From Candidatus Saccharimonadales bacterium (GTDB lineage Bacteria > Patescibacteriota > Saccharimonadia > Saccharimonadales > DATKHC01): 64,000 bases of DNA. Below are positions 6,564-61,724 of the stretch, in pieces (position 1 is the stretch's first letter; every line of letters begins with the position of its first letter). The notes under the pieces are model-generated. The model was not told where the DNA came from. It did not search any database and saw only the letters and a program-made list of their open reading frames with translations. The position numbers and the translations under genes were made by a program. The stretch lies in NCBI GenBank assembly GCA_035510465.1, contig DATKHC010000021.1, forward strand, positions 2,876 to 66,875, given 5' to 3'.

Positions 6564-6665
6564 AACTCAATTATAGGATAAAGGTATTGGACAGAGTAGT
6601 GTTTGGCCCCTAATTGCAAGGTTTATAACTTGCAAAAATTAGGATATAATTTCCTAAATAACATT

Positions 6666-7052: not shown

Positions 7053-7124
7053 AAACAAGTTTAGGGCTTAGAACTACATAAATTTGTAAGGACTACTCAA
7101 AAACCGATATAGTAGGTAGACCAA

Positions 7125-13248: not shown

Positions 13249-13859
13249 CCCTGCACCGCTCCTCTCAGATAAACAATTGTGAATATGAATATCCAAATGA
13301 TATCCAGAAAATGCCAGAACAGGCTAAGCATAGTTAGTCTTCTGATGGTTGACGACTTAAGACCAGATTTAGCTACCCTTACAATTAGAACAAGCATCCA
13401 AAGCAAGCCAACGCTAATGTGAAGTCCATGTGTCCCAACTAGAGCAAAGTATGAAGACAAGAAACCACTCCGTGTCCAACTATTACCAGTGTGGGCAAGG
13501 TGCGTAAATTCTACAAGTTCCATAATCAAAAATGCCAGCCCTAGCAAAAATGTAATCGTAAACCAACCAACCACTTTGGTTTTATGGTTGTGTCGCGCCG
13601 CCAGAATTGCTAGCCCGCACGTAAAGCTACTGGTAAGTAGGATAATCGTTTCGGTCAGTATGTAGGGAAGACTAAATAGCTGCCTGCCATCTGGGCCGCC
13701 ATTAGTATTGTTATTCAAAACTGCGTAGGTAGCAAAAAGACTTGCAAACAAGACACAGTCCGTCATTATGTATACCCAAAAACCAAAAAGGTTTTTATCG
13801 AATTTTTTTTGCACAAATGTACTATTTGTAACCGGGTGGGTTGACGCAACTTCACTCAT
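13245..13859 (-). CDS. cyoC: Cytochrome o quinol oxidase subunit III
   Basis: 204 aa, 5 TM, C-terminal WHFLDIIWIFIFTIVY motif of the subunit III family. Confidence 0.85.
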   Translation of the reverse strand: MSEVASTHPVTNSTFVQKKFDKNLFGFWVYIMTDCVLFASLFATYAVLNNNTNGGPDGRQLFSLPYILTETIILLTSSFTCGLAILAARHNHKTKVVGWFTITFLLGLAFLIMELVEFTHLAHTGNSWTRSGFLSSYFALVGTHGLHISVGLLWMLVLIVRVAKSGLKSSTIRRLTMLSLFWHFLDIIWIFIFTIVYLRGAVQG

Positions 13860-15856
13860 GCGTAGCCCCTCCCCGGGGATAATTCAACCTCGATCTTCTC
13901 GACTTCATCCGCTGTTATTACTTGTTCGGTATTATCACTAGTTGTGTAAATAATTATGGTTAAGATCACGCCCAGAAGTCCAACTATTGCCAGCCACCAA
14001 ATATGCCAGACTGCACTAAACCCAAGTATCAAACTGAAGCCAGCGATAATTATGCTAGCGCCCGTGTGTTTTGGCATAATTATATCTTCGTATTCTGATT
14101 TCTTCTGCTTAACTCCCTTGGCTCGGGCTTGTTTCATTTCCCAGAACGGATCTCGGCTATTTACCTCGGGCTCAATCGCAAAATTGTAGAATGGAGCCGG
14201 GGAACTAGTTGACCACTCAAGCGTCCTGCCATTCCACGGGTCTCCGGTTGTATCCAGGTTTTGTTTTCTTTGAAAAATACTGACGACGATCTGCAAGAAA
14301 AGCATTGCTGCTCCCAGCGCAATGATGCTTGCGCCAATCCCGGCTACTATAAACAGCGGGTGCCATCCCGTGGCAACGCTATAGTGATCGATTCGTCTAG
14401 TAGCTCCCATCAAACCTAGTATGTACAGCGGCACAAAGGCAAGCAGGAACCCAATGAACCAAAGCCAAAAAGAGTATCTTCCAAGTTTTTCGTTTAACTT
14501 AAACCCAAAGATCTTTGGAAACCAGTAATTTAGACCTGCAAAATACCCGAACAAGGCTCCCCCGACTATCATGGTATGAAAATGGGCTACAAGAAATAGA
14601 CTATTATGAAGCTGAAAGTCAGCCGGCGGCACAGCCATAACTACACCAGCTACTCCGCCCACCGTAAACAACCCGACAAACCCAAGAAACCAATACATTG
14701 GTGTTTTAAAGCTAATCTTTCCTCTAAACATGGTCGCAATCCAATTGAATATTTTTACGCCTGTAGGAATCGCGATAATCATAGTCATAATACCGAAGAA
14801 GCCATTGACGTCAGCACCCGCGCCCATCGTAAAGAAGTGGTGTAACCAAACGCTGAAAGACAAGACTACGATAGCTCCAATTGCCCAGACCATGGTTGTA
14901 TAACCAAATAGTCTCTTTCTTGAAAAAGTTGCCACGACTTCAGAATAGATACCGAACGCAGGCAAGATCAAAATATATACTTCGGGATGACCCCAGGCCC
15001 AAATCAAATTAACGTACATCATTAAATTACCCCCTCCAGCCGCCGTGAAGAAGTGCGTTCCAATCGTTCGATCCATATATAGCAGCGTCAGGGTTACTGT
15101 TAGGATTGGGAAAGCAAATATAACTAGAAACATGGTCCCTAAAACGCTCCAACTAAACATAGGCATTTTCATCATTGTCATGCCTTTGCAGCGCATCTTA
15201 ATAATTGTTACGAAGAAATTAACTCCCGATAGCAAGCTTCCAATCCCCGCTATCTGTAGGCTCCATATCCAATAGTCAACACCAACGCTGGGACTATACT
15301 GAAGTTCAGAAAGTGGTGGATAAGCTAACCAACCAGCTGCCGAAAAATCGCCGATAATTAGCGATAGATTGACAAGTATCATGCCAGAAGCAAACAACCA
15401 AAAACTGGTGAGGTTTAGAAACGGAAAGGCGACATCACGTGAACCAAGTTGTATCGGAAGAATCAGATTTATTAGCCCAAACATTAAACCCATGGCAACA
15501 AAAAAGATCATTATTGTGCCATGAGAGGAAAATATTTGTTGGAAAGTATTGGCTGATACTATTCCGTGAGATGCCCCAACAGAAGTAGCTTGTTGAGCCC
15601 GCAGTAGTAGCGCATCAGATCCTCCGCGAACCAGCATGATGAGCGCGACAACGATGTACATAACACCAATTTTTTTAGGATCCGGATTTGTTAACCACTC
15701 CCGCCAAAGCCAACGCCACCTTTTTTTGTAGGTTAGAAAGGCAGCTAGGCCCACTACTAGTAATACCATTGAGACTGCCGCCCCTGCAGTTATTGGGGCG
15801 GTCGGGAACTGATTGAAGGACAATTTGCCGAGTAAATTAGCGAACAGATTCATCAT
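13856..15856 (-). CDS. cyoB: Cytochrome o quinol oxidase subunit I (heme-copper oxidase)
   Basis: 666 aa with classical heme-copper motifs (WAWGHPEVYILILPAFG, HHFFTMG, VAHFH). Confidence 0.95.
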   Translation of the reverse strand: MMNLFANLLGKLSFNQFPTAPITAGAAVSMVLLVVGLAAFLTYKKRWRWLWREWLTNPDPKKIGVMYIVVALIMLVRGGSDALLLRAQQATSVGASHGIVSANTFQQIFSSHGTIMIFFVAMGLMFGLINLILPIQLGSRDVAFPFLNLTSFWLFASGMILVNLSLIIGDFSAAGWLAYPPLSELQYSPSVGVDYWIWSLQIAGIGSLLSGVNFFVTIIKMRCKGMTMMKMPMFSWSVLGTMFLVIFAFPILTVTLTLLYMDRTIGTHFFTAAGGGNLMMYVNLIWAWGHPEVYILILPAFGIYSEVVATFSRKRLFGYTTMVWAIGAIVVLSFSVWLHHFFTMGAGADVNGFFGIMTMIIAIPTGVKIFNWIATMFRGKISFKTPMYWFLGFVGLFTVGGVAGVVMAVPPADFQLHNSLFLVAHFHTMIVGGALFGYFAGLNYWFPKIFGFKLNEKLGRYSFWLWFIGFLLAFVPLYILGLMGATRRIDHYSVATGWHPLFIVAGIGASIIALGAAMLFLQIVVSIFQRKQNLDTTGDPWNGRTLEWSTSSPAPFYNFAIEPEVNSRDPFWEMKQARAKGVKQKKSEYEDIIMPKHTGASIIIAGFSLILGFSAVWHIWWLAIVGLLGVILTIIIYTTSDNTEQVITADEVEKIEVELSPGRGYA

Positions 15857-16746
15857 TCGCTCATCCCCGCCATACCCATCATTTGCCCTCCAGGAGCCAA
15901 ATACTTATCGATTATCGTATTATACAGACCTGTTTGAGCTGATGCGTAATACGAAGGTGGGTTGTACTCACTTGGCTGGAGCAATTTATTGTACTGCGCC
16001 ATGCTAAGTTTGCTAGAAGAATCCTTAATATTTTTTACCCAGGAGTTGAAAGCAGCATTTGAGCTAGACTTGGCAGTAAAGGTCATCCCAGCAAAGCCTT
16101 GGCCACTTATATTAGCGGATGAGCCACTAAAGCTGCCGTACTGACTTGCCATCAAATGTAACTGAGTCGACATACCCGGCATGACATACATTTGACCACC
16201 AAGCTGGGGAATCCAGAATGAATTCATAACAGAGTCTGAGGTTAGCTCAAAACTCAGTGGTGTATTTTTCGGGAACTGGAAAAGGTTGACTGAGGCAATG
16301 TTCTGCTGAGGATAGATAAATAACCATTTCCAATCAAGCGACACTACCTGAATTGTAAGTGGGGGAGTTGTTGAACTGAGCGGTTTATACGGATCGAGTT
16401 GATGCGAAGAATCCCACGCAATCACAGCAAGAACAGTAATAATAATCGACGGTATCAACCACCAGATAGTTTCTGCGATTTTGTTACCATCAAGCTCAGG
16501 GCTATATTTTGCCTTCGTATTCGTTTCCCTATATCTCCATGCGAAAAGAATCGTAAGTGTGTAGACAGGGATAACAACTATCAGCGCTAGAGCCAGAGCA
16601 ATAAAAATGAGCTTTCGCTCTTTGTAGGCGACTGGACCTTTCGGATTTAAGACAGCTATACTGGAGTGATGCAGATAATTAGCCGCAACTGCCAAGAAGC
16701 CTAATACTATAACTGCGATTAGGATTTTTTTGTATGTCTTTCTCAT
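15853..16746 (-). CDS. cyoA: Cytochrome o quinol oxidase subunit II
   Basis: 297 aa, two N-terminal TM plus a cupredoxin domain. DSVMNSFWIPQLGGQMYVMPGMSTQLHL resembles CyoA. The CuA ligands (CxExC) are absent, so this is a quinol oxidase, not a cytochrome c oxidase. Confidence 0.9.
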   Translation of the reverse strand: MRKTYKKILIAVIVLGFLAVAANYLHHSSIAVLNPKGPVAYKERKLIFIALALALIVVIPVYTLTILFAWRYRETNTKAKYSPELDGNKIAETIWWLIPSIIITVLAVIAWDSSHQLDPYKPLSSTTPPLTIQVVSLDWKWLFIYPQQNIASVNLFQFPKNTPLSFELTSDSVMNSFWIPQLGGQMYVMPGMSTQLHLMASQYGSFSGSSANISGQGFAGMTFTAKSSSNAAFNSWVKNIKDSSSKLSMAQYNKLLQPSEYNPPSYYASAQTGLYNTIIDKYLAPGGQMMGMAGMSE

Positions 16747-35991: not shown

Positions 35992-36067
35992 GGGGATGTA
36001 GCTCAGTTGGTAGAGCGCAGCATTCGCATTGCTGAGGCCCGGGGTTCGATTCCCCGCATCTCCACCA
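35992..36067 (+). tRNA. tRNA-Ala (anticodon CGC)
   Basis: Manual cloverleaf: GGGGATG acceptor with G3:U70, anticodon loop TTCGCAT, T-loop TTCGATT, encoded CCA. Confidence 0.9.
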
Positions 36068-36086
36068 GATAATGTTTTATTATTAC

Positions 36087-36560
36087 TTATTTTTCAAGCA
36101 GTCTAGCAAGCTTATCGATGCTTTGAGTCCATCCCATCTTCATGCCAGCAAGTGGCCCTTCAGCTTCTGGAGTTACTTTTGTTACGACTATGTGAAGCGT
36201 CATTTTTGTCCCAGCGTCATCTTCTTCAAATGTCACAGTGTTTAGACAATCTAATATTGGTTTACCCTCCATGATCGCACTTGATGAGTAGACAAGTTTT
36301 TCCGGTGAGGTAACTTCCTGGAAGACTCCTTTCATTGGCCACTTACTCCCCTGTAAATCACCGAGTTCTTCCCCGGCCAGCATGACCACGTCAATTGCTC
36401 CACCTGGCTGGGCATCCCATTCACAGGTTGGGTTTGTAACACCTTCGGGGCCCCACCACTTTGCAACTAAACTTGGATCGGTCCAAGCTTTAAAAACTTT
36501 TTCTCTCGGCGCGTTAAATACTCTTGTAATAGTTAATTCTCTGTTGTCGTCGTCTGACAT
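36087..36560 (-). CDS. SRPBCC/AHSA1-family protein
   Basis: LTITRVFNAPREKVFKAWTDPSLVAKWWGP is the AHSA1-like N-terminal signature. Confidence 0.8.
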   Translation of the reverse strand: MSDDDNRELTITRVFNAPREKVFKAWTDPSLVAKWWGPEGVTNPTCEWDAQPGGAIDVVMLAGEELGDLQGSKWPMKGVFQEVTSPEKLVYSSSAIMEGKPILDCLNTVTFEEDDAGTKMTLHIVVTKVTPEAEGPLAGMKMGWTQSIDKLARLLEK

Positions 36561-36573
36561 ACTATTCTCCTTA

Positions 36574-37031
36574 TTAATTAGTTAATGCAGTCTCAAGCGC
36601 TTTTAGTAGCTCCTTCGAACCTTGTTCACGGTTCTCGGGTTTATCATAACCATCTAAAAACACCCCGTATTCATGCAAATCTAATTCAGTGCCATCACCA
36701 CTAACAGCAAACTCTATAGTCGTTACTGAAACCGAAATACGAATATCGTCTAAGTACATTTCGTAGCAGTAGACAATCCTCTGCTCTGGGACAATGTCAT
36801 AATATTGAGCTTTAAAAACATGGACTACACCATCATGAAACTTTCCGCTGTTGAATTCTGTTCCACCAACCCTAAAATCCATAGAATGCTTGGTGCTGCC
36901 ATCATCACTAAGGCCCTTAAACGACTTTTCTTTAGACCCCTTGTCTGCAAACATTTGATAAACCTTGCTTAAGGAGCCTTAAATTCTCTACTAACACTAA
37001 ACTCTGCGTGGATGACACTACTTTGTTTCAT
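36574..37031 (-). pseudogene. SRPBCC/AHSA1-family gene with an apparent 1-nt deletion (frameshift) near codon 20
   Basis: The ATG at 37031 gives MKQSSVIHAEFSVSREFKAP then TAA (36969-36971). The -1 frame continues LSKVYQMFADKG into track ORF 36574..36954. Joined, REFKAPLSKVYQMF fits the family N-terminus. Confidence 0.6.
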
Positions 37032-37361
37032 CTAATTCCCCTCCTCTTTTAATAATTCTTCTAACGCATCAAACCTAACGTTCCAAAGTTTTTCATACTG
37101 ATCCAAGTAATCCCGGACGCTCTTAAGAGCTGCTGGTTCGGCTGTAACAAATTGCTTTCGTCCGCTTCGTCGTTTGCTTATGAGTTTAGCTTTTTCAAGA
37201 ATTTGTAAATGTTTCGAGACAGCAGCAAAACTCATTTTATAGTGCTCGGCAATTTCTCCAACTGTTTGCCCACGGCCAGATAACCTTTGCAAAATATCCC
37301 GTCTTGTAGAGTTAGCAAGTGAATTTAAGACCAAATCTAGCTGTATAGCATATTCAACCAT
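37032..37361 (-). CDS. ArsR-family winged-helix transcriptional regulator
   Basis: 109 aa with LANSTRRDILQRL...TVGEIAEHYKMSFAAVSKHLQILEKAKLI (HTH). Its stop abuts the next ATG (TAGATG). Confidence 0.85.
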   Translation of the reverse strand: MVEYAIQLDLVLNSLANSTRRDILQRLSGRGQTVGEIAEHYKMSFAAVSKHLQILEKAKLISKRRSGRKQFVTAEPAALKSVRDYLDQYEKLWNVRFDALEELLKEEGN

Positions 37362-37369
37362 TTCGTTGA

Positions 37370-37398
37370 ATGTTACTATCTAATCTTTTTCGTGTCAA
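37370..37398 (-). promoter_or_regulatory. Sigma70-like promoter of the arsR-SRPBCC operon
   Basis: On the minus strand: TTGACA, 17 nt, TAACAT, 8 nt, ATG. Confidence 0.5.
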
Positions 37399-37414
37399 GC
37401 AATTTTTTTATTAA

Positions 37415-38056
37415 TTGGTTATGGTTGCTATCTACTTAGTTTGGTATCATTATTTGTCTATGACGGAAATGGGGACCCCAGTAGGTGATCTAAGTAAATC
37501 ACCTGCATCGGTGGTAGTTGAAATCCAACAAGCAATCCTGACATCTCTGGATCTTGAGGTAGATAATTTCGAAGGCATTAAGGAACATTTAGTAGAAGTT
37601 AAAATTAAGCCAAACTCAATTATATTTTTGCCTTCTGCGTTAGGTGGATTTGTCAGCCAATACCGAGAAGAGTACGGCCCCAAGGGTAATGTCATGCACT
37701 GGAGTGATATACCCGCAGATTGTGATAGTTTCCGTGCTTTTATATTATGTGCATCAACAATTTTAGGCGACCCCGGTCCCCCTATTCTTCATTTGAGTTT
37801 GTTTATAAATGATGTCGACGCCGGCTCAATCGGCATAAGACTGACTGACGTAGAAGAAATATCTATTTATCCGGATAACGCCGCAGAGATGTTGAATATG
37901 TATCAAGAGGCTGAAATGGATGGAGATACACTCGCTTATAACGAGATACATGGGCTTAACGGAGCTCCCGTGTGGAAGAGGGAAGAGATTCAGCCTTATT
38001 TAACAGATCTGTGGCCAGATCCTGATATGATTTTTCAAAAATCAGATTTCGTATAA
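37415..38056 (+). CDS. Hypothetical acidic protein
   Basis: 213-aa ORF. A more likely start is the ATG at 37460 (MTEMGTPV...). No domain recognised. Confidence 0.45.
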   Translation: MVMVAIYLVWYHYLSMTEMGTPVGDLSKSPASVVVEIQQAILTSLDLEVDNFEGIKEHLVEVKIKPNSIIFLPSALGGFVSQYREEYGPKGNVMHWSDIPADCDSFRAFILCASTILGDPGPPILHLSLFINDVDAGSIGIRLTDVEEISIYPDNAAEMLNMYQEAEMDGDTLAYNEIHGLNGAPVWKREEIQPYLTDLWPDPDMIFQKSDFV

Positions 38057-38072
38057 TCAGTCACTTATCAGA

Positions 38073-38149
38073 TGGTGGAGCTAGAGGGACTCAAACCCTC
38101 GACCTCATCTATGCCATAGATGCGCTCTAATCAACTGAGCTATAGCCCC
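38073..38149 (-). tRNA. tRNA-Ala (anticodon GGC) with non-canonical D/T loops
   Basis: Manual cloverleaf: GGGGCTA acceptor with G3:U70, anticodon loop ATGGCAT. D-loop AGTTGATTA (no GG) and T-loop TTTGAGT (U instead of C56). Confidence 0.85.
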
Positions 38150-38156
38150 AAATAAA

Positions 38157-38453
38157 ATGGTGGACCTTGTGGGACAGCTTTCAAACCCTTTGTCAACCCT
38201 GTTATCCCTGGTGGCAGGGTCAGAAAGAGTCGAAAAAGTCCTCAGGTCTACGAAAAATTGTAACCGGTTGCAGTTGAAACACCAAACACAGGTTCGTCTT
38301 GGGACCAAAGCTGTTGCTGAGCTGATCCAGGCCTACCAAGCTGGTGAGCCGATCAATTCCCTAGCTGAGCGCTTCTTCATTCACCGCACCACTGTCATCG
38401 AGCATGTCAGGAGATCCGGGGTGAAAATAAGGTGGGAGTCCAGGAGGAAGTGA
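38157..38453 (+). CDS. Truncated HTH protein, paralog of 55802..56230
   Basis: AVAELIQAYQAGEPINSLAERFFIHRTTVIEHVRR aligns with RVEDLIRGYIEGVPVDDLATQFGVDQSTVQKHARR. It lacks the second HTH. Its 3' end overlaps an opposite-strand ORF. Confidence 0.5.
   Translation: MVDLVGQLSNPLSTLLSLVAGSERVEKVLRSTKNCNRLQLKHQTQVRLGTKAVAELIQAYQAGEPINSLAERFFIHRTTVIEHVRRSGVKIRWESRRK
38158..38189 (+). repeat. Partial degenerate duplicate of the tRNA-Ala(GGC) 3' end (att-like)
   Basis: TGGTGGACCTTGTGGGAC-agctt-TCAAACCCT versus the tRNA strand TGGTGGAGCTAGAGGGAC-TCAAACCCT. That is 15/18, a 5-nt insertion, then 9/9. It lies 8 nt from the tRNA 5' end. Confidence 0.65.
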
Positions 38454-38600
38454 GGTCTTTGATCTCTTCTTGACACCTTCAATCTGTTCTGAGGTTAGTT
38501 CCTTGGCTAGCTCCATATAGGTCCTGGCTAGTTTTCTTAGATCCGGGTTTTCCTTGCGAATTCCTCGAACTCTGATAATCCTTCTCGGTTGCTTTGACTT

Positions 38601-38630
38601 CATTGACGCGATCTATTGTCGCGCTGATAG
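38601..38630 (+). repeat. 30-nt intergenic motif, copy 1
   Basis: CATTGACGCGATCTATTGTCGCGCTGATAG. The 20-nt core GACGCGATCTATTGTCGCGC is identical in all 3 copies and contains a CGCGA/TCGCG stem with a 7-nt loop. Confidence 0.7.
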
Positions 38631-38654
38631 GAAAAAATTACAAAGTTTGCTTAA

Positions 38655-39206
38655 TTACTGTCGTGTAAGCCACTTCTTTCTTATATCTCTTGAGATAGAG
38701 AAATATAAGATCCAAAAAACTGATGGGTAAAATAGTCGTGCATTGGAAATGAACACGTCATATAAAATACCCGGTGTGTGGACAGCGTCTTTAACAATAT
38801 TTTGATAAATAGCTTCAGCAATGAAGAACCACAATACATAGGCACTGAAATAGCTTATGCTCAAAACAATTGAAATCCTTTTCTTCAGGTTTACAAAGAA
38901 TCCAATCAATAGAGCACCAAGGATCTTTAAGACGTGTGCAACCTGAACTGCAACGTAATAGCCATGCAAGCTTGGATAAGCTGTATTTATTTGGGGCGTA
39001 AGTTTTGAGAACAAACCCTGATACTGGTGTAAATAATAGAGGTTATATACAACTACGTAACCAAGATAAATTAAAAATAGAATTAAAAAGATATTGTACT
39101 TATATGCCTGGAATATTTGACTACTTTCTTTGATCGGTTGTTCTCCAACTCTTGATGCAATGTTCTTCGGTGACGTGTTTTTTCTTGACCGTATATCCTG
39201 TTCCAT
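38655..39206 (-). CDS. Polytopic membrane protein
   Basis: 183 aa with about 5 TM helices. TGCTACAAT (extended -10) lies 7 nt upstream of the ATG. Confidence 0.55.
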   Translation of the reverse strand: MEQDIRSRKNTSPKNIASRVGEQPIKESSQIFQAYKYNIFLILFLIYLGYVVVYNLYYLHQYQGLFSKLTPQINTAYPSLHGYYVAVQVAHVLKILGALLIGFFVNLKKRISIVLSISYFSAYVLWFFIAEAIYQNIVKDAVHTPGILYDVFISNARLFYPSVFWILYFSISRDIRKKWLTRQ

Positions 39207-39240
39207 TGAAATTATTGTAGCACCCCCACATATAACGGTA

Positions 39241-39270
39241 TTTAGACGCGATCTATTGTCGCGCCGATAC
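39241..39270 (+). repeat. 30-nt intergenic motif, copy 2
   Basis: TTTAGACGCGATCTATTGTCGCGCCGATAC, with the same 20-nt core. Confidence 0.7.
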
Positions 39271-39287
39271 GAATTAATTAATAGTAG

Positions 39288-39893
39288 TTATTGAGCAAGC
39301 TGTATTTGAGAAGCACTTGAGATAATCATTTCGGGTTCACCTTTGTAGTTAGTGATAGTTCCTGTGACATCTACGGACTGACCTGAGTATTGACTCAGGA
39401 CACTAGGGCCAAATGAAGTTCCGGCCGGGATATATGCAGAGAAGCCATACGGAGCCGATAAATACTGATCCAGATACATCTCTCCCCTTGAGGAGGTATA
39501 AGCATAGCCAGTAAAGTTAATGCAACCACTTGTACCCTCCATACTGGCTGCATCAGAAACCGGTGAACAAGATGGCGTCGTGCTAGCTGGAGGAGAAGTG
39601 GTTTGCGATGGAGCGGTACTAGCAGGGCTTGTCGAAGTCGTTTGAGGAGTTGTTGTCGTTGCGGGCGCAGGAGAAGTTATTGTCAAATTAGGACTTTTGC
39701 TAGTCGCCGAAGTACTCTTCTGACTGGTTTGTTGCACGTCTATTGGAGTAGAGGTGTTTTTGTGCGAACCAACGGCACCTAGAACTATCAGGAACGCCAC
39801 CACTCCAATTGCTATGCCCGCTTTCTTGTTACTTGATAGCTTTTTCTTTTTGTTAGAGTTCTTTTTTACTTCGTCCTGACCTTGTGTATCCAT
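39288..39893 (-). CDS. Membrane-anchored S/T/P-rich protein with a C-terminal OB-fold-like domain
   Basis: 201 aa: N-terminal TM, a TSxP-rich linker and a C-terminal QSVDVTGTITNYKGEPEMIISSASQIQL that resembles OB-fold termini (weak). Confidence 0.5.
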   Translation of the reverse strand: MDTQGQDEVKKNSNKKKKLSSNKKAGIAIGVVAFLIVLGAVGSHKNTSTPIDVQQTSQKSTSATSKSPNLTITSPAPATTTTPQTTSTSPASTAPSQTTSPPASTTPSCSPVSDAASMEGTSGCINFTGYAYTSSRGEMYLDQYLSAPYGFSAYIPAGTSFGPSVLSQYSGQSVDVTGTITNYKGEPEMIISSASQIQLAQ

Positions 39894-39969
39894 ATGAAGC
39901 CTCTACTTAAGAATTATTAGTTTAAGTATAGCTCGGCCTACATAATATATGTACTTAATATTTGAGTTT

Positions 39970-39999
39970 CATTGACGCGATCTATTGTCGCGCCAATAG
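39970..39999 (+). repeat. 30-nt intergenic motif, copy 3
   Basis: CATTGACGCGATCTATTGTCGCGCCAATAG, with the same 20-nt core. Confidence 0.7.
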
Positions 40000-40071
40000 T
40001 TTCAACAAATAATCTAGTGATACTTGAAGATATTATTTTACGTCGTACAATAAAGTGTGTAAGGAGTTAAT

Positions 40072-40251
40072 ATGGCCAAATCAAATCAAACTAAAAGAAG
40101 CACTCAATCATTAAAAGTTACAAAACAGGAACTTTCGGGAGCCGGACACGTTTTAGGTGACAAGAAGGCAACGAAAGCGGAGAAAACAGATGCTGCTCTA
40201 CTATTAAGAGCTTCGCAAAAATCCGCAAAGTCCAAACCCCAAAAGAACTAG
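40072..40251 (+). CDS. Small basic protein (59 aa) upstream of the protease
   Basis: Own translation: MAKSNQTKRSTQSLKVTKQELSGAGHVLGDKKATKAEKTDAALLLRASQKSAKSKPQKN. AAGGAG SD 5 nt upstream. The stop is 3 nt before the protease ATG. One residue below the track cutoff. Confidence 0.45.
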   Translation: MAKSNQTKRSTQSLKVTKQELSGAGHVLGDKKATKAEKTDAALLLRASQKSAKSKPQKN

Positions 40252-40254
40252 TCT

Positions 40255-41028
40255 ATGCCATTGACCATCACGGCTTTCAATCAATCCGTTGGCGCTCCTA
40301 GCCCAGTTTCTGGTGGGCCTGACCGAGCAGTTGCTGCCATATTTACCGCTGATAAGAATGAGCGCGAAACTAATCCGTTAACTGTCCGCAACTGTTTAGG
40401 TACAGGATTTCTGGTCAATGGTTATGATATCCACTTTGTTACGGCTAGACACGTAGTAGCGGCTCCTCTAGCGCAAGACGAGGAGCTAGTTCTTGCATTT
40501 AACTTGGACTCTGGCTTTTTAAGCATACCTGTTAATTCACTTAGCTTATCAGACTCAACAGATTTAGCATTTGGAACTCTGCTTCCGGAGAACGACGTTA
40601 CAATTCCTGGTTTTCAAATAGCAAGAACTGTACCAATCAACACCGATTGCTCTACGTTGGAACATAGTGGGACAGGACGCAACGTTAGTGCCGGAGGGAT
40701 GCTATATAACGTGAGGTATAGACGAGGAAATATTGTCTCAAGTGGTAAATATGAATATGAGGGGATCTTATCTGAGTCTACGGTCTTTGAAATGTCATAC
40801 CCTTGCTTGTGGGGAGCCAGTGGCTCGCCGGTATTTAACTCAGCCACCCTGGAGTTGGTGGGGATGATGGTTCAGAACGTTGATCACGAACTCGCTCCCA
40901 GCCAGTTAATAAAAGCTGTGGATGACGAGGGACAACTAATCGAAGAAATTAAGTACACAATACCTCAGGGGATCGCGCTAAGTGCGGTAACTATAAACAG
41001 TGAGCTTGACGTCCACGTACTGCATTAA
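40255..41028 (+). CDS. Cytoplasmic trypsin-like (chymotrypsin-fold, Trypsin_2-type) serine protease
   Basis: The catalytic triad can be read off: GTGFLV...FVTARHVV (His), STDLAF (Asp), WGASGSPVF (Ser). No signal peptide or TM. Confidence 0.8.
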   Translation: MPLTITAFNQSVGAPSPVSGGPDRAVAAIFTADKNERETNPLTVRNCLGTGFLVNGYDIHFVTARHVVAAPLAQDEELVLAFNLDSGFLSIPVNSLSLSDSTDLAFGTLLPENDVTIPGFQIARTVPINTDCSTLEHSGTGRNVSAGGMLYNVRYRRGNIVSSGKYEYEGILSESTVFEMSYPCLWGASGSPVFNSATLELVGMMVQNVDHELAPSQLIKAVDDEGQLIEEIKYTIPQGIALSAVTINSELDVHVLH

Positions 41029-41838: not shown

Positions 41839-41915
41839 TGGTGGGTGATGAGGGGCTCGAACCCCCGACCTCCTCGGTGTAAACGAGGCGCTCTAGCCAA
41901 CTGAGCTAATCACCC
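41839..41915 (-). tRNA. tRNA-Val (anticodon TAC)
   Basis: Manual cloverleaf: GGGTGAT acceptor, anticodon loop TTTACAC, T-loop TTCGAGC, encoded CCA. Confidence 0.9.
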
Positions 41916-53157: not shown

Positions 53158-53475
53158 ATGAATACAATAGACACAAATCTTACAACTTCCGGCAATAGCG
53201 TTGCAGTGCGCTTACCTAAAGAGCTACTTAAAATGAGTGGCCTAGGTAATAAGGTAACCCTACAGGCAAAAAAAGGTAAAATAATTATTAGTAAGCCTTC
53301 TAACCCCCGTGCCGACTGGAGTCAGAATATTAAAGCAATGGTAGAGAAGTATGGAGATCCTTCTGAAGAGTTTACCGAAATGAATGATTCCTTAGTCGGG
53401 GATGGGTTAGATAACTTGCCGTGGGACGGGATTACTTACGAAGAATGGCTGAAAGATAATGATAGAGTTTCCTAG
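53158..53475 (+). CDS. AbrB/SpoVT-fold antitoxin (MazE-like)
   Basis: NSVAVRLPKELLKMSGLGNKVTLQAKKGKIIISK is a swapped-hairpin AbrB-type motif. Overlaps the toxin gene by 17 nt. Confidence 0.8.
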   Translation: MNTIDTNLTTSGNSVAVRLPKELLKMSGLGNKVTLQAKKGKIIISKPSNPRADWSQNIKAMVEKYGDPSEEFTEMNDSLVGDGLDNLPWDGITYEEWLKDNDRVS

Positions 53476-53785
53476 ACAGGGGTCTATCTATTGGTTTAAC
53501 CCCGAGCCTTCTAAGGGAGCTGAATTACGTAAGATTCGTCCTGGAGTTATAGTTTCTCCTGATGAAATGAATAGCAATATAAAAACCGTAATTATTGTTC
53601 CGCTTACTTCTGCTGTTAGGCCATGGGACTTTCGTTTGAAGATATTGGTTGCTGGACATAGTTCAAGTTTAGCCTGCGACCAAATACGTTCTATAGATAA
53701 AACTAGGCTAAAGTACCAAATGGGTAGCCTAAAAAAATCTGATTTAGAAAAACTGTTCGTATTATTGCAGTCAATTTTCTCCTAA
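53459..53785 (+). CDS. MazF/PemK-family endoribonuclease toxin
   Basis: GSIYWFNPEPSKGAELRKIRPGVIVS...VIIVPLTS...CDQIRSIDKTRL follows the PemK/MazF pattern. Confidence 0.85.
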   Translation: MIEFPRQGSIYWFNPEPSKGAELRKIRPGVIVSPDEMNSNIKTVIIVPLTSAVRPWDFRLKILVAGHSSSLACDQIRSIDKTRLKYQMGSLKKSDLEKLFVLLQSIFS

Positions 53786-55829: not shown

Positions 55830-56230
55830 ATTCTGACCAGGGAGAATGCCTCCGGAACCTCCTCGAAATGCTCCCATCTGGGTCCAAAACGGCGAAAGTT
55901 CGAACCCCAAGGCGGGTCTGCCGGCGTCTCGACCCATCCCGCGTGGAGGACCTAATCCGGGGCTACATAGAGGGAGTGCCGGTCGATGATCTCGCCACCC
56001 AGTTCGGGGTTGATCAGAGCACCGTCCAGAAGCACGCTCGCCGACATGACTTGCCCCGCCGGTCACCCCGATTAGGTCCTAACCAGACCGAGGAGGCAGT
56101 TCGGCTCTATCTCGCTGGTCAGTCCTTGGCCAAACTGTCCGATCACTTCGGTGTTGCGACTGACACCGTCGCTCTTGCTTTGCGTAGAACCGGGGTCACC
56201 TTGCGACCACGGCGGGGGTGGTCGAAGTAG
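55802..56230 (+). CDS. Tandem helix-turn-helix DNA-binding protein
   Basis: Two HTH units: VPVDDLATQFGVDQSTVQKHARR and QSLAKLSDHFGVATDTVALALRR. GTG start inside the att-like repeat. Confidence 0.6.
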   Translation: MEVMGRYLNHSDQGECLRNLLEMLPSGSKTAKVRTPRRVCRRLDPSRVEDLIRGYIEGVPVDDLATQFGVDQSTVQKHARRHDLPRRSPRLGPNQTEEAVRLYLAGQSLAKLSDHFGVATDTVALALRRTGVTLRPRRGWSK

Positions 56231-56447
56231 CTCGTTTTCAGGTTCCCGTAGAGGGATCAGACCGTCGATGCGACGCCAGTCAATCTATCCGTTTCAGCGT
56301 TGTCAGCCGTCGGCCTCTGATCGCAGATCACTCTTTGGCTCACTCTTCAAGAGGTCAGATTTAGATTGTCGGGTTGTTGTCGTACAATAGAAACACTATG
56401 AAGAGGGGATGTGACGTGGAGACTGAGTTGCGGGTGGACGGTACGTC

Positions 56448-57323
56448 ATGACGATGGCTGAGGTACCGAATAAATTTGAAGATAAGATTCTTCGGAGAGA
56501 TGAGTTCGCCGCACACTACGAAGTCGTTACGGATCTCCCAGATATCAGCGAAGGCCGTCAATCGAGGGTCTCGGTATTGCGGTTCAAAATCGGCGGTGAA
56601 TCAGAAGAGCTGGTTGTATGGAAACGGATGGGCGTTGGCAAACACCTAACCAAACGAGAAGCTCAGTTTCTGCATTCTCGCTTACGGACGTATCGTCGTA
56701 GCCTGCGAACCTCTGGTTGGAACATTCCGAAGCTTTTTCATACTCATGTGGCCAAGGTCGACATGGAATGGCAGGTATTGAGTTATGAACAGTTCATCCC
56801 AGGTGGGGATGCCGACCACATGTTCAAGAAAGCAAATATTCCGAACTATCGGAAGTGGTTCTTAATTCGAACTGCTCTTGAGACGCTAGCAGAATATGAC
56901 CAGCATCTAATTGGTCCGACCACCATTGAGGGTCAACAAGTGACGTTACTCCCTCACGGTATTGATCTGAAGCTTGCAAATCTCGTCAACGACGAAGGCC
57001 AGGTGTGGTTCGTGGATCTGTTCGGGCCGAAGGAACTCGAGGATGGAGAGTGGGTGAGCTACAACTCAAAACTCGATCATCTATCGGAAGAACGTTTGAA
57101 GGCGGTGACGGCCACAAGAGAAGGAAGTGTATTGCGCCTATTCCGACTCGCAGAAGAGAGTTGGCTGGAAAGTGGGTCAATCCAGAGGGAGACTCTTCAA
57201 GACAACTTCGAGGACGTCCTCGAACAATCAGGTATTCCAGAGCGCGAGGCTACGTTCATCATGGATCAGATCCGATCCGACTACCCGTGGCTCGACAAGC
57301 TCTACTCGGAGGAGCTTGTCTAG
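56448..57323 (+). CDS. Protein-kinase-like fold protein
   Basis: LVVWKR (VAIK-like Lys), HGIDLKLANLV (HxDxxxxN catalytic loop) and WFVDLFGP (DFG-like) occur in the correct order and spacing. Confidence 0.55.
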   Translation: MTMAEVPNKFEDKILRRDEFAAHYEVVTDLPDISEGRQSRVSVLRFKIGGESEELVVWKRMGVGKHLTKREAQFLHSRLRTYRRSLRTSGWNIPKLFHTHVAKVDMEWQVLSYEQFIPGGDADHMFKKANIPNYRKWFLIRTALETLAEYDQHLIGPTTIEGQQVTLLPHGIDLKLANLVNDEGQVWFVDLFGPKELEDGEWVSYNSKLDHLSEERLKAVTATREGSVLRLFRLAEESWLESGSIQRETLQDNFEDVLEQSGIPEREATFIMDQIRSDYPWLDKLYSEELV

Positions 57324-57566
57324 CTGACAAGTAAGGTTCCTTGAGGATATTCAGCGTACCGACCGACGGTGGATCGGACATCGGAGATGCGCAACTCTCA
57401 GCGGTCGCGCACCCACCGGTCAGCCTGACTACGGGGCCATTTCACTCCTCCCACGCCGCCCTGGCCAATGCCTCACTGAGGTCACGCCGTTTAGGCACTT
57501 CTACGGAGTCTCGGGATCCTTAGAAAGCCCCCGGGCATGCCCAAAGTCTGTACGAACGGATGAACC

Positions 57567-57668
57567 ATGGAGCAGCGCAGACTGATGAATCAGGCAATCT
57601 TCGGCAAGCTGTACGTCAACGAAGGTGGAAATATCCGGAGTCCTAAGCTGCGTGTTCGAGAGATGTGA
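57567..57668 (+). pseudogene. Possible C-terminal remnant of a large serine recombinase
   Basis: The 33-codon ORF MEQRRLMNQAIFGKLYVNEGGNIRSPKLRVREM resembles the RRxLNQAxFxKxYV segment I recall near the C-terminus of actinobacterial serine recombinases. Upstream frames are broken. Confidence 0.25.
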
Positions 57669-57873
57669 TCCGGACGCCGTGATCATCAAGCACTCGGTTG
57701 TGGTCAGTTACAGCAGCCTTAATCGCTTTGATGTCGTCCTCAATCTTAGAAATATGAGCTACAGACTTCTTGATTTCACGGCTGTCAGCCTGAAGAAGAG
57801 ACATGCCCTCAGCTAATGCTTGCATCTTGCCGTCTATGTCTTCAAGTAGTACTTCGAGGTGATCTTTTTTCAC
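57643..57873 (-). CDS. Small coiled-coil protein, last gene of the minus-strand operon
   Basis: 76 aa, heptad-like, low GC (23/60 in one line) within the GC-rich island. Confidence 0.4.
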   Translation of the reverse strand: MKKDHLEVLLEDIDGKMQALAEGMSLLQADSREIKKSVAHISKIEDDIKAIKAAVTDHNRVLDDHGVRITSLEHAA

Positions 57874-57954
57874 GATAGATCAATTCTAACATGCGCAACC
57901 AAAATGCGGACACGCACATCTTGATCCTCGAAGATGCGTATTGCTCTATCTACC

Positions 57955-59161
57955 CTAAGTCACACGCCCTTCTACAAAGTTGTTGACTAATTCTGCTAGA
58001 ACAGTATCCGGAACATCGAAGAACTCAAATACCATAAAGAGGGGCTCCACTAGACTGCGAACCAAGTCGACAAGATTTGTTTGGAGCTCTGCGAGCGTGC
58101 AGTCAATCGTTGAACTAACGGCTTCTTCTTGCGTGGTCCGAGCTTGATGCATAAGCCGGTTGCCGGCTGATCGGAGATCCCTTCCTCTGAGTCCACCGTG
58201 TACCACTTCGATATGTAGCTGCGTGGAATCAGGCGCCTCCAATCGAGTGTAACAGCGAGCCAAAAACAACAGGAGCTCGGTGATTCGAATAATTCGTGTG
58301 TCAAAGAAAATCGACCCAGGCAGCCTTTCATCTTCAAATAGACTGCTGAGGAGGTAGAAGTCACCAGTTCGACGCACATACCAATAGTCGTAAGTGCCGT
58401 GTTCTCGAAAACCATCACCAGCAGGTAGAGATACTTCGGCGCGAACTCCATCTGCAGTTGGTTGTGGTCTCATATTATCGCGACTTAGTACTATTCCTAT
58501 TGGCCAGCCGAAGGTCTTGACTTGAGACTCCTCGACCGACGAAAGCAGCACAGACTGACGCCATGTACCCTTCGGTAACAGTGAAACGGACGCCTCCATG
58601 TAACCCTCGAGGTGTACTACTGCGAGACCAGATAAAGCCCTTTCACGTTGCTCATCTATCCATTCTGTGTCGACCGCAGGTTGCGGCTGAATCGGAGTTT
58701 TGTCAGGTTCACCGGGCAGTGGCGGCTCGATGATTGCCAAACGTCGCTTTATCCGCTTCTCCAGCTCTTCTCGGAACTCCGCCGGTTTCTTACTATCCCA
58801 AAGCAACCGGTCATATCCTTCTAGGTCAAAATGAACATGGGGACCATCATGTTTGTAGTTTGGGCTGCTGTGATGATGGTCCTCACGAACCGTAAGGATG
58901 AGATTGCGTTTCTTGCCAAGACCCATTGCATATCCGACTTCCAAGTAACAATTCGGTCGCTCGTTTGTTAGATCGGCGACAATAATCTGCGAGCTTTCAA
59001 GGAACGCCACGATCTCAGACTTAAGGAGCTCTCCGGAATTGTCCCGATCGACTCTCTTGGGGGGCGAGCCCACACGCTTCGATCGCAGGAACAATAACGC
59101 TGTCACAGATGCGATCCATTTCGGCATCGCCTATCTGCATGATGATGAATGCATCATCCAT
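57955..59161 (-). pseudogene. Nucleoside 2-deoxyribosyltransferase/TIR-like N-terminal domain fused to an unknown ~260-aa domain; frameshifted in a G6 run
   Basis: The ATG at 59161 gives MDDAFIIMQIGDAEMDRICDSVIVPAIEACGLAP. After the run 59059-59064 the frame shifts to KRVDRDNSGELLKSEIVAFLESSQIIVADLTNERPNCYLEVGYAMGLGK (track ORF 57955..59127). Removing one G restores a ~401-aa ORF. Confidence 0.6.
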
Positions 59162-59176
59162 TCTTACAAATCCTTG

Positions 59177-59614
59177 TCATCCCGCCTCTTTACCGTTGGC
59201 TCGCCGCTCGGCGTCCCTCTGGATGGCGACCTCGAGAAGGAGCTGCGCCAACTTGTCCACCTTGATATCCGACCTGGCCAGTGAGTGGATACGGATTCTA
59301 CCCCTCTGACCTCGTGGAGCTTTCGTCTGGGTTGGCTCACGGTCACTCGGCCCGGGGTCGCTCGGCTTGAGCGCTTGACGTATCCGGAGATAGAGCTTGC
59401 CCGCTCGATGAGGAAGAGACGGATGGTCAGCAGTAACGAGCTGGCGATGGAGGACGGCGTCCTTATCGTTGAGCTTCTTGGTCAGCGCGTAGAAACCATG
59501 AAGCTCTAGTTGCTGGGCGTAAGGCAAGATGGTGAAGACATTGCGGTTGCTGTTCCATACTTCGAGAAGGAACTGACGTTGCTCTAAGTAATCGTGATTC
59601 GTTAAACGTGGCAC
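59177..59614 (-). CDS. Hypothetical protein, first gene of the operon
   Basis: 145-aa ORF with a GTG start embedded in an inverted repeat. No motif recognised. Confidence 0.45.
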   Translation of the reverse strand: MPRLTNHDYLEQRQFLLEVWNSNRNVFTILPYAQQLELHGFYALTKKLNDKDAVLHRQLVTADHPSLPHRAGKLYLRIRQALKPSDPGPSDREPTQTKAPRGQRGRIRIHSLARSDIKVDKLAQLLLEVAIQRDAERRANGKEAG

Positions 59615-59662
59615 CGGTACATTGCTCTCTTACGCAATCAGTGTCTCATACATGTACCGGTG
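59612..59662. promoter_or_regulatory. 11-bp perfect inverted repeat overlapping the start codon of 59177..59614
   Basis: CACCGGTACAT, 29 nt, ATGTACCGGTG. A third CCGGTACAT lies at 59759-59767 inside the palindrome GGTACATCGTGTACC. Confidence 0.5.
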
Positions 59663-59816
59663 AGCAAAATACCTTGACGGACTTGAACCATTTAACAGCG
59701 GTCGCGATTTTGGGGTTGAGTGACAACCAGTGACGCGTAGCCACACGGTTTTGGTTGTCCGGTACATCGTGTACCTCTGTTATAGTGGGATCTATTCTAT
59801 ACTATTCCTATAGTTA

Positions 59817-59902
59817 TGGTGGGGATGAGAGGACTCGAACCTCCACGGGCTATGCCCACTAGTACCTGAAACTAGCGTGTATACCAATTTCACCACATCC
59901 CC
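59817..59902 (-). tRNA. tRNA-Leu (anticodon CAG)
   Basis: Manual fold: GGGGATG acceptor, anticodon loop TTCAGGT, long variable arm, T-loop TTCGAGT, encoded CCA. Confidence 0.85.
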
Positions 59903-59942
59903 AGTAACCCTGATTCTACATAAGTATGGACCAGCAGTAAAT

Positions 59943-61724
59943 TTAGTTTGTCTTATTTACCTCTCTAACCATCCAATTGGAGACGTTTGCATAGCGATCG
60001 GCTGCAGAATTGAACATAGTCGGCGAGAAATTAAATAAGTGTCCGCGGACGACATATAAGAATCTTGGCTGATATAGAGCAACTGCCGGTGCATCGTTCT
60101 GCCAATTTTGTAAGAACGGCTGGTATTTAACCGCCCTGAGAGCCGGGTCGACAGTGATACGCCCACCTTCTAATGACTCGTCTGATGCCGTTGATTTATA
60201 TTCTGAGAAATTAAGTCCCGGTATAGCCGATGGACTAGCCTGAGAACTATCCCAATAAACAAAAACGTCGGGATCTACGCCAATTGATATGCCGTAAAGT
60301 AGTGCGTCATAGTCACGGTTTTCCAATGTAGTCTGGAAATCAATCGACTGTTGACTAGCTAGTTGAGCATCAACTCCAATCGCTTTCCATTGCTTAACCA
60401 GAGCTTGACCGACATAGTTATACTCGCTGTCATCCTCAGTAAAGAGCTGAAATTGCAACGGACTTCCAGATTTTGTTCTAATGCCGTCTTTGCCCATAAT
60501 CCATCCATCTTGAGTAAGTAGTTGATTAGCCTGGGCAACATTGGTTGTCAGCTGGAGTGTTTTGGGAGCGTAGCCTATTTGGAAAGGCAGCAAAGGGCTT
60601 CTAGCTGGAATAACTGGATAGCCCAATCCAGCGATGATACTACTCTCGTTCGTACCTTCTACTAGAGCTTGGCGGACTTTTACGTCAGACAAAATTGGTC
60701 CGGAGTTATTGAAGAATGTCATAACTTCAGCCGTTAGTGGCACGTTATAACTAAACACATCGGAAGACTTGACTAAATTAGCCGGAAGATTATCAAGCCC
60801 GGCCATGGCATCAATGTCCTGATGATCAAAACCTGCAATCATTGAACCCTGGGTAGGATAGTCATTAATAATAAAACGGTCTAAATCTGGTTTGCCACCG
60901 TAATAATACGGGTTTGCAACCAATCCAATCTGTTGTTGCTGGGTGTTAGCACTAGTTTCCGCAACCTGCACAGTCTCCCACTTGAATGGTCCCGCCCCCA
61001 CAGGATCGACAGTATTGAAATTGACTGACTGAAAACCGCTAGGTTGAACATTACCGAGCAGATGCTCGGGAATGATGCCGGTAGTTAGATTTTCAGGAAA
61101 TGAGCTTAGCGAATCGGGTAGGCTGAAAAGGATAGTTCGAGAGTTTAACGCTTTTATATCTACTCCTTGCCAACTAGAAAAAAGAGGTGAATTCACGTCT
61201 GGATTTTGGATTGTCTTAAAGGTGAATACTACGTCATTAGCGGTTAGTGGGGTTCCGTCCTGCCATTTTAGATTGGGTTTCAAGACAACCGTATAATTCT
61301 GGCCTTTCGAATCAACAGACCAAGACTGCGCCAAGTCCGGCACTAACTGATTAGCTGAGTTGTATTTTAAAAGGCCAGCGAATATCAGTCTTGATACAGC
61401 GGCGTCAACATCGTTATTAACAAACAAAGGATCCGAAGTAGTGTAAGAACCTACAATCCCTTCCGAATATGATCCTCCGGGGACAGGTGTTAACTTCTGG
61501 TAATATCCGCTAAGTTCGTAAGCTTGTATGAGAGTAACCCCAATTAACAAAACAACTAACGTGATCCAACTGAGTAAAAACCTACGGACAGCCAGTAAAC
61601 GAGCAGTTCGTTTGAAAAAGTGACGCTCTAAATGGCTCTCTGCCTGTTGGGAGATATCGCCAACTTGCTGACGACTCCTACGGTACCTACGACGCCAACG
61701 AAGTTTCGTGGTCCGATTAATCAT
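59943..61724 (-). CDS. ABC transporter substrate-binding protein, family 5 (peptide/nickel type), membrane-anchored
   Basis: 593 aa. N-terminal TM, then an SBP_bac_5-like pattern (LVPDLAQSWSV...KWQDGTPLTANDVVFT). Confidence 0.8.
   Translation of the reverse strand: MINRTTKLRWRRRYRRSRQQVGDISQQAESHLERHFFKRTARLLAVRRFLLSWITLVVLLIGVTLIQAYELSGYYQKLTPVPGGSYSEGIVGSYTTSDPLFVNNDVDAAVSRLIFAGLLKYNSANQLVPDLAQSWSVDSKGQNYTVVLKPNLKWQDGTPLTANDVVFTFKTIQNPDVNSPLFSSWQGVDIKALNSRTILFSLPDSLSSFPENLTTGIIPEHLLGNVQPSGFQSVNFNTVDPVGAGPFKWETVQVAETSANTQQQQIGLVANPYYYGGKPDLDRFIINDYPTQGSMIAGFDHQDIDAMAGLDNLPANLVKSSDVFSYNVPLTAEVMTFFNNSGPILSDVKVRQALVEGTNESSIIAGLGYPVIPARSPLLPFQIGYAPKTLQLTTNVAQANQLLTQDGWIMGKDGIRTKSGSPLQFQLFTEDDSEYNYVGQALVKQWKAIGVDAQLASQQSIDFQTTLENRDYDALLYGISIGVDPDVFVYWDSSQASPSAIPGLNFSEYKSTASDESLEGGRITVDPALRAVKYQPFLQNWQNDAPAVALYQPRFLYVVRGHLFNFSPTMFNSAADRYANVSNWMVREVNKTN

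Follow-up and report, generated by a model that had tools for sequence, protein, structure and literature searches.

Three direct copies of a palindromic site around two small membrane-protein genes of a Saccharimonadales bacterium: candidate boundaries of single-gene modules

Within a 64,000-nucleotide stretch of DNA from a Candidatus Saccharimonadales bacterium (GenBank assembly GCA_035510465.1, contig DATKHC010000021.1, positions 2,876 to 66,875; hereafter the window), one 20-nt sequence, GACGCGATCTATTGTCGCGC, stands in each of the three gaps around two small genes, which encode membrane proteins of 183 and 201 amino acids (aa). What purpose does a sequence serve that is so exactly kept and so closely confined? 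An initial annotation made from the letters of the window had offered three answers, namely a site bound by a common regulator, a recombination site at the borders of one-gene cassettes, or a hairpin for RNA processing or stability; the evidence assembled here, above all a homologous block in a related contig and the mosaic flanks of the copies, leans to the second, the other two being less probable. We suggest, tentatively and with somewhat less than even confidence, that the three copies serve small modules of one gene each as sites of recombination or as boundaries, comparable to att sites, integron cassettes or dif modules. In support of this suggestion, the identical 20-nt cores all point the same way and fall precisely within the three intergenic gaps, with no other occurrence in the 64 kb.

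Anatomy and distribution of the repeat

All three copies lie on the forward strand (Table 1), and an exact search and the fold both agree with the initial annotation on an identical core that forms a hairpin with a 7-nt loop. Each 20-mer is the core of an imperfect palindrome of about 29 bp with an 11-7-11 design, YWTWGACGCGA/TCTATTG/TCGCGCYRATA, whose arms match each other at 7/11, 8/11 and 9/11 positions in copies 1, 2 and 3; the 7-bp centre and the inner 7 positions of each arm are invariant among the three copies, and the differences within the arms lie at their outer positions. Folded as RNA or as single-stranded DNA, the core makes a stem of 5–6 bp (CGCGA/TCGCG, plus one wobble pair on either strand), which is extended to about 12 bp in copy 3 only. 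The minus strand of copy 3 folds at −16 kcal/mol (z −3.6), and copies 1 and 2 fold no better than shuffled sequences (z −0.47 and −1.56). The TTGACG box that had been noticed in two copies is found in copies 1 and 3, and none of the copies matched an Rfam covariance model at E up to 1, only tRNAs reaching the gathering score.

The copies are spaced 640 and 729 nt apart, a spacing that came out the same on remeasuring, and the intervals of 620 and 709 nt between the cores are protein-coding. The core of copy 1 lies 30 nt past the stop of the 183-aa gene; that of copy 2 lies 38 nt ahead of the ATG of the same gene and 23 nt past the stop of the 201-aa gene; that of copy 3 lies in the middle of a 178-nt divergent intergenic region, 80 nt from the ATG of the 201-aa gene and 78 nt from a forward-strand ATG at 40072. 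The gaps of 25, 18, 35 and 77 nt given at first had been counted from a 30-nt unit and agree with the distances of 30, 23, 38 and 80 nt counted from the core.

The repeat is a real, non-random and lineage-restricted feature. No further match to the 20-mer at up to 3 mismatches exists in the window (0/100 shuffles gave any match), matches at 6–7 mismatches, which might have revealed diverged copies elsewhere in the 64 kb, are not commoner than in shuffles, and the pattern CGCGA-N4-10-TCGCG occurs in the window at these three copies only. The same locus is present base for base in five other contigs (L002–L005 and L021), named from five sample accessions, although one set of reads may underlie both the L004 and the L005 assembly. 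Searching 185,579 species genomes (596 Gb) for the exact 20-mer returned one match, in a metagenome-assembled genome of the Terriglobia, which we take as chance (about one expected) and whose flanks are unrelated. Neither the exact 20-mer nor the 17-mer stem-loop matched the IMG/VR viral contigs; the exact 20-mer had no match in the JGI metagenome contigs, a collection evidently without the short JGI contigs of this locus; the 1.47-kb locus had no blastn match among plasmids and phages; and viral contigs searched with the 201-aa protein and with the neighbouring 98-aa helix–turn–helix (HTH) protein yielded nothing. The window, genome, viral and metagenome searches thus bear no sign of the high-copy dispersed repeat that the initial annotation had named as the outcome that would speak against its readings. 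The 201-aa protein has 29 database homologues, and among the loci of about a dozen that were fetched with homologues at 45–75% identity (L007–L020) no relative of the repeat was found.

As regards the other contigs that carry the locus, L004 and L005 both end 32 nt past copy 1 and within the S/T/P-rich linker of the 201-aa gene, and L003 ends inside both flanking tRNA genes. These ends could be assembly-graph branch points, or could reflect low coverage together with shared tRNA k-mers.

A shared block and mosaic flanks

The closest homologue of the 201-aa protein (84% aa and 76% nt identity) is encoded on a metagenome contig, L006, the sole fetched relative in which relatives of the repeat are seen. 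Its upstream copy, AGCAACAATAGATCGCGTAAATGAAA, lies about 120 nt ahead of the gene and matches the window copies at 25/28 positions; it has kept the centre, the arm on the gene side and the adjoining AATGAAA, and its outer arm no longer pairs. Its downstream copy, TTTTGGTGACAATTATGTCGCCAAATGA, lies 21 nt past the stop and forms a perfect 10-bp hairpin (−15.9 kcal/mol, z −3.1) which, compared with the window core, has two stem pairs fewer and base changes that keep the pairing (MAFFT sets this copy one column out of register, and the pairing is taken from the fold). What the window and L006 have in common is repeat, promoter and Shine–Dalgarno region, 201-aa gene and repeat, and nothing else: outside the two sites there is no similarity on either side (local alignment p 0.6–0.9, against 0/300 shuffles inside), and tblastx of the window against the 5.6 kb of L006 finds the 201-aa gene as the only shared gene. 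The gene that follows the 201-aa homologue in L006 is convergent with it. A repeat–gene–repeat block thus stands in two unrelated contexts, with the repeats as its edges.

The flanks, compared on the sense strand over 16 nt on each side of the core, are shared in halves. Copies 1 and 2 have 12/16 positions in common before the core (TAATTwwTTCsTATCr, on the 3' untranslated region (UTR) side of each gene) and 3/16 after it; copies 1 and 3 have 9/16 in common after the core (AATGAA..., which recurs at both L006 sites); between copies 2 and 3 neither flank is alike (6/16 and 4/16). Copy 1 is therefore chimeric, joining a left half like that of copy 2 to a right half like that of copy 3, which is what would be expected from a crossover inside the core. 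The upstream copy of L006 fits a hybrid site with one arm from the module and the other from the target.

Moreover, the combination of an invariant centre and inner arms with variable outer arms is the pattern of tyrosine-recombinase core sites (cf. the pdif table in PMC13141974). Such sites generically have inverted arms around an asymmetric, identical overlap of 6–8 bp, and here arms matching at 7–9 of 11 positions enclose an identical 7-bp centre. The setting also lends support, in that the locus occupies a tRNA-bounded islet of 3.7 kb and distant homologues of the 201-aa gene are cargo of serine-recombinase elements near a tRNA-Val-like gene. Considering the identical centres and inner arms, the direct orientation at gene boundaries, the block homology, the chimeric flanks and the conservation without pairing at an untranscribed upstream site, we argue that a protein-recognized double-stranded recombination site fits these features better than an RNA element does.

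From this anatomy, copy number, block homology and flank mosaic we infer the following course of events. A site-specific recombinase, of the tyrosine-recombinase type and encoded elsewhere, would recognize the double-stranded site of about 29 bp, in which two 11-bp arms, inverted and imperfect, enclose the asymmetric 7-bp centre TCTATTG; it would pair two sites, and strand exchange would take place within their identical centres. One module would consist of the 201-aa gene and the sites to either side of it; the 183-aa gene, bringing along a promoter and a single site, would later have been inserted in the site downstream of the 201-aa gene, so duplicating the core. The inserted unit would run from TAAATACC through the promoter, the 183-aa gene and its 3' UTR to a core, with the crossover inside the core of the ancestral site (schematically, Y2-183 gene-X1-core into X2-core-Y), and the arrangement that we propose as ancestral, a site downstream of the 201-aa gene and no 183-aa gene, is the one still seen in L006. 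As all copies point in the same direction, recombination between neighbours would excise circles, of 640 bp or 729 bp. The hairpin of the same sequence, 23–30 nt past each stop, may additionally stabilize the mRNA 3' end.

An ATG stands directly after the core in 4/5 sites (as CAATGAA or AAATGAT; window positions 38603 and 39972, L006 positions 1126 and 1892). The reading frames so opened have 80, 5, 9 and 20 codons, which makes a conserved peptide unlikely; the 80-aa frame, antisense at 38361-38603, opens in the flank of copy 1 and is called as a gene in contig L021. The conservation of AATGA after the core would be accounted for if it formed part of a protein-binding arm.

Table 1. Repeat copies, genes and candidate promoter elements of the islet, in window coordinates
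Feature	Position	Strand	Description
tRNA-Ala(GGC)	38073-38149	-	Left islet border
98-aa HTH protein	38157..38453	+	Stand-alone, resolvase HTH_7 type, full length
Copy 1	38601..38629 (core 38605-38624)	+	CATTGACGCGA/TCTATTG/TCGCGCTGATA; likeness to copy 2 runs on to 38640
183-aa gene	38655..39206	-	Orphan integral membrane protein with at least 3 hydrophobic segments; putative module between copies 1 and 2
Candidate extended -10, TGCTACAAT	39214..39222	-	7 nt ahead of the 183-aa gene ATG; read from sequence
Copy 2	39241..39269 (core 39245-39264)	+	TTTAGACGCGA/TCTATTG/TCGCGCCGATA; between both genes; likeness to copy 1 to 39280
201-aa gene	39288..39893	-	N-terminal membrane anchor, S/T/P-rich linker, C-terminal OB-fold domain; putative module between copies 2 and 3
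Candidate -10, TATACT, with GAGG Shine–Dalgarno	39925..39930	-	201-aa gene; -10 and Shine–Dalgarno region kept in L006
Copy 3	39970..39998 (core 39974-39993)	+	CATTGACGCGA/TCTATTG/TCGCGCCAATA; best palindrome, 9/11 arm positions
Promoter-like TTGACG-17-AATAGT	39972..40000	+	Overlaps copy 3, directed toward the 59-aa and trypsin-like genes (40072-41028); consensus match only
tRNA-Val(TAC)	41839-41915	-	Right islet border; 3' end toward the islet

Boundary sites weighed against other readings

Several points tell against sites that bound recombining modules. No integrase, resolvase catalytic domain or transposase was found by Pfam scans of the approximately 60 open reading frames (ORFs) of the window or in the gene table of L002. 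In the comparison for cassette gain or loss that the initial annotation had recommended, L006 lacks the 183-aa gene; the five other contigs of the locus are identical and hold no presence/absence, rearrangement or junction variants. The case is built on three copies and two diverged ones in one relative, and the flank argument on short AT-rich strings. The two L006 sites have unlike centres, so that no recombination would be possible between them. The GC content of 0.35 in the 183-aa gene reflects amino-acid composition, and since its GC content at third codon positions (GC3) is ordinary (0.36, against 0.36–0.42 in eight other genes), we dropped the low GC as a sign of foreign origin. Finally, each gene seems to have its own promoter, and the sites could therefore equally be regulatory.

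Were they regulatory, they would be operators of one dimeric regulator acting on CGCGA-N7-TCGCG at three sites 640 and 729 bp apart, binding cooperatively with looping of the DNA and repressing the 201-aa gene, the 183-aa gene and the divergent operon of the 59-aa and trypsin-like genes; a candidate for this regulator is the neighbouring 98-aa HTH protein, a possible binder of the repeat sites whose gene is 150 nt away. The palindrome is there, and an HTH gene stands beside it. The half-sites are of 5 bp with centres 12 bp apart, and conservation is complete over 20 nt; copy 3 occupies the middle of the divergent promoter region, between the two ATGs, and fills the spacer of a promoter-like sequence, and from the end of copy 2 to the −10 of the 183-aa gene downstream of it there are 25 nt. 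In lac, gal and deo, operators lie hundreds of bp apart, upstream and downstream of the gene, and the looping distances required here are like those of deo or lac. Further, the upstream copy of L006 keeps its sequence with its hairpin broken, which points to recognition at the level of DNA and not of RNA structure. We nevertheless hold operators to be unlikely on balance, considering that the core stands at no constant distance from the −10 (25 nt for copy 2, 43 nt for copy 3 and about 86 nt for L006), that copy 1 is without a convincing downstream gene, that no copy stands upstream of the HTH gene, itself without room for a promoter, that L006 is without a homologue of this gene, and that the invariant 7-nt spacer and the mosaic flanks would be superfluous. 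In addition, the downstream site of L006 lies between convergent genes and has changed its sequence and kept its pairing. A stem so kept despite sequence change (10 bp, perfect) suggests selection on pairing, and brings into play a 3'-end RNA hairpin on minus-strand transcripts, which would block 3' exonucleases or mark a processing site and whose copies would have spread with 3' UTRs. Such a hairpin would accord with the placing of elements 23, 30 and 21 nt past the stops of the 201-aa gene, the 183-aa gene and the L006 homologue, with the likeness (12/16) of the 16 nt between stop and core in copies 1 and 2, and with G–U pairs that favour the sense strand in copy 3 and L006. We judge it decidedly unlikely all the same, as there is neither a U tract on either strand nor a terminator-like call (mycobacterial RNA polymerase reportedly needs a U tract for intrinsic termination), the core stem is of 5–6 bp and copies 1 and 2 fold no better than shuffles, the wobble pairs in the flank of copy 1 favour the opposite strand, and copy 3 and the upstream copy of L006 lie upstream of a promoter with no co-directional gene before them, the latter having kept its sequence and not its stem. 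Moreover, gene 3' ends in the window are not enriched in hairpins or canonical terminators, and the idea of a genome-wide habit of hairpin terminators was dropped for want of such enrichment.

Very improbable, in our estimate, is a selfish element, miniature palindromic or like the repetitive extragenic palindromic (REP) sequences, moved in trans by a transposase of RAYT, IS200/IS605 or IS110 type and landed by chance three times in adjacent gaps. The repeat is indeed a short imperfect palindrome, intergenic only and found after stop codons, and a segment flanked on either side by like-oriented hairpins is reminiscent of IS200/IS605 termini. Against this, however, there are only three copies, which fall within 1.4 kb, the remaining 62 kb holding none even at 6–7 mismatches, the single match in 596 Gb is attributable to chance and there is none in viral or metagenome contigs, the window holds no Y1 or RAYT transposase and no TnpB, and inverted REP pairs are absent. 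The readings are not mutually exclusive, and returning to recombination or boundary sites, a site at the end of a module could double as a 3' hairpin.

Compared with established classes of element, the site lacks the defining features of attC, dif/pdif, REP and CRISPR, and for this reason we file it under none of them. It is also not a typical intrinsic terminator, as had been recognized at the outset from the want of a U tract: the sense-strand tails read AATGAAG, TAAATAC and AATGAAA, no terminator-like site is called in 37900-40400, and the canonical form is excluded. By position, copies 1 and 2 and the downstream copy of L006 lie 21–30 nt past stops, and copy 3 and the upstream copy of L006 after no gene. 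Integron attC sites measure 57–141 nt, against a unit of 29–36 nt here with no GTTRRRY on either strand of the three copies, and neither Pfam scanning of the window ORFs nor the gene table of L002 revealed an integrase domain. A dif or pdif site is built as 11-6-11 with inner ATAA/TTATG, whereas the present arms end in CGCGA/TCGCG around 7 nt, and dif modules would have inversely oriented sites, whereas all three copies are on the same strand. For REP sequences or BIMEs many dispersed copies and a RAYT would be expected, against three clustered direct copies and no Y1 match in the 64 kb examined; for a CRISPR array, non-coding spacers of 25–70 nt, against coding intervals of 620 and 709 nt and no cas domains.

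There are nevertheless instructive likenesses. Three palindromic direct repeats delimit two excisable modules in PAISt of Streptomyces turgidiscabies (PMC4057263). The present locus similarly adjoins tRNA genes, as many islands do, and has eroded sites in relatives, but its modules would hold one gene each and measure 640 and 729 bp, where those of PAISt run to tens or hundreds of kb; it lacks an integrase gene, its repeat belongs neither to a tRNA nor to the 3' end of a host gene, and excision is here a proposal. The Acinetobacter plasmid dif modules are small accessory modules between pdif (XerC/XerD) sites of about 28 bp in an 11-6-11 layout, with the recombinase encoded elsewhere, and pdif sites with identical centres are those that recombine (PMC13141974). 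Our locus shares with them modules of one or few genes and two 11-bp arms around a short centre, and differs in a centre of 7 bp instead of 6, in the absence of the ATAA/TTATG arm motifs, in sites that are all direct and do not alternate between C/D and D/C, and in its place in a chromosomal islet of an unrelated soil bacterium. With integron cassettes it has in common single-gene units in the same orientation, each closely followed by a palindromic site, and a neighbouring cassette that is present or absent between genomes; in contrast, the 29-bp site has no R''/L''/L'/R' organization, GTTRRRY or extrahelical-base design, neither intI nor attI is found, and the putative cassettes appear to have promoters of their own. 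REP/BIME and the Neisseria dRS3/NIME sequences are likewise palindromic intergenic repeats of about 20–35 nt that can stabilize mRNA 3' ends; dRS3 repeats, of 20 bp, bracket variable segments and are integration targets. These, however, number tens to hundreds of dispersed copies per genome, as against three clustered ones here and no RAYT or IS110-type gene in the window.

Carried further, the reading of the copies as recombination or boundary sites would describe a minimal gene-cassette system, in which single-gene modules with their own promoters are captured and excised at a direct 29-bp 11-7-11 site by a recombinase encoded elsewhere. We put this fuller version forward as distinctly doubtful; such a system would be functionally analogous to integrons and dif modules and unrelated to them in site sequence and architecture. 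If the copies are recombination joints, single envelope-protein genes would be shuffled in a very compact manner, as units of about 0.65–0.75 kb with a 29-bp site and no linked integrase, the idea of integrons and dif modules would take in a further type of site and an uncultured bacterium of soil or peat, and there would be a simple sequence signature to look for in other genomes. If the copies were operators or RNA hairpins instead, they would represent ordinary local regulation in a small tRNA-bounded islet.

The bracketed genes, the islet and the surrounding chromosome

The two genes had been described as encoding small envelope proteins, and both products do carry membrane segments. The 183-aa protein has no match in Pfam or NCBIfam and, among 5.8 billion proteins, no homologue except its own fragment. 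As no Shine–Dalgarno sequence is seen at its gene, with the candidate −10 so close to the ATG, the sequence suggests a leaderless mRNA. The C-terminal domain of the 201-aa protein is conserved, carries a conserved Cys pair and is predicted with pLDDT >90; the predicted domain matches OB folds, namely those of RMI2, the AspRS N-domain, RPA and YgiW. Its distant homologues in L007–L010 are cargo of large-serine-recombinase elements, with neighbours that include DUF5659, DUF5678 and HicA, and the element of L009 adjoins a tRNA similar to the tRNA-Val of the window.

The locus lies within the 3.7-kb islet from the 5' end of tRNA-Ala(GGC) to the 3' end of tRNA-Val(TAC), and in this respect the tRNA-bounded segment of the initial annotation was borne out, both tRNA genes being found. 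Its description of the HTH gene as truncated was not, since the 98-aa ORF aligns end to end, and with the same ending, with single-HTH relatives of 93–130 aa. The protein belongs to a HTH_7/HTH_23-like family with a conserved N-terminal VDLxGQLSNP motif, some members of which have 5–11 tandem HTH units in 300–1000 aa. Its gene starts 8 nt past the 5' end of the opposite-strand tRNA-Ala, and this leaves no room for a promoter of its own.

The chromosome around the islet encodes LeuRS, RNase III, TrmD, S16, murein ligases, a cyo-type oxidase, WhiB and MMPL. WhiB, MMPL and the cyo-type quinol oxidase (6603-9383 and 13245-16746) stand in a chromosome of 43% GC, and form a set of actinobacterial-type genes in a low-GC uncultured soil or peat bacterium. 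Adjoining the studied islet is a second tRNA-bounded one, a 2-kb segment (35992-38149) that is enclosed by two convergent tRNA-Ala genes (CGC and GGC), their 3' ends facing it, and contains ArsR, two AHSA1-domain genes and a 213-aa orphan. A MazE/MazF (PemK) toxin–antitoxin pair at 53158-53785 follows a near-consensus promoter, TTGACA-17-TACAAT. Further along, the GC content rises to 0.51 at 56000-60000, compared with about 0.43 elsewhere; three ORFs there (56448-57323, 57955-59127 and 59177-59614) have no Pfam match, and as the segment adjoins tRNA-Leu (59817-59902) it may be a foreign island.

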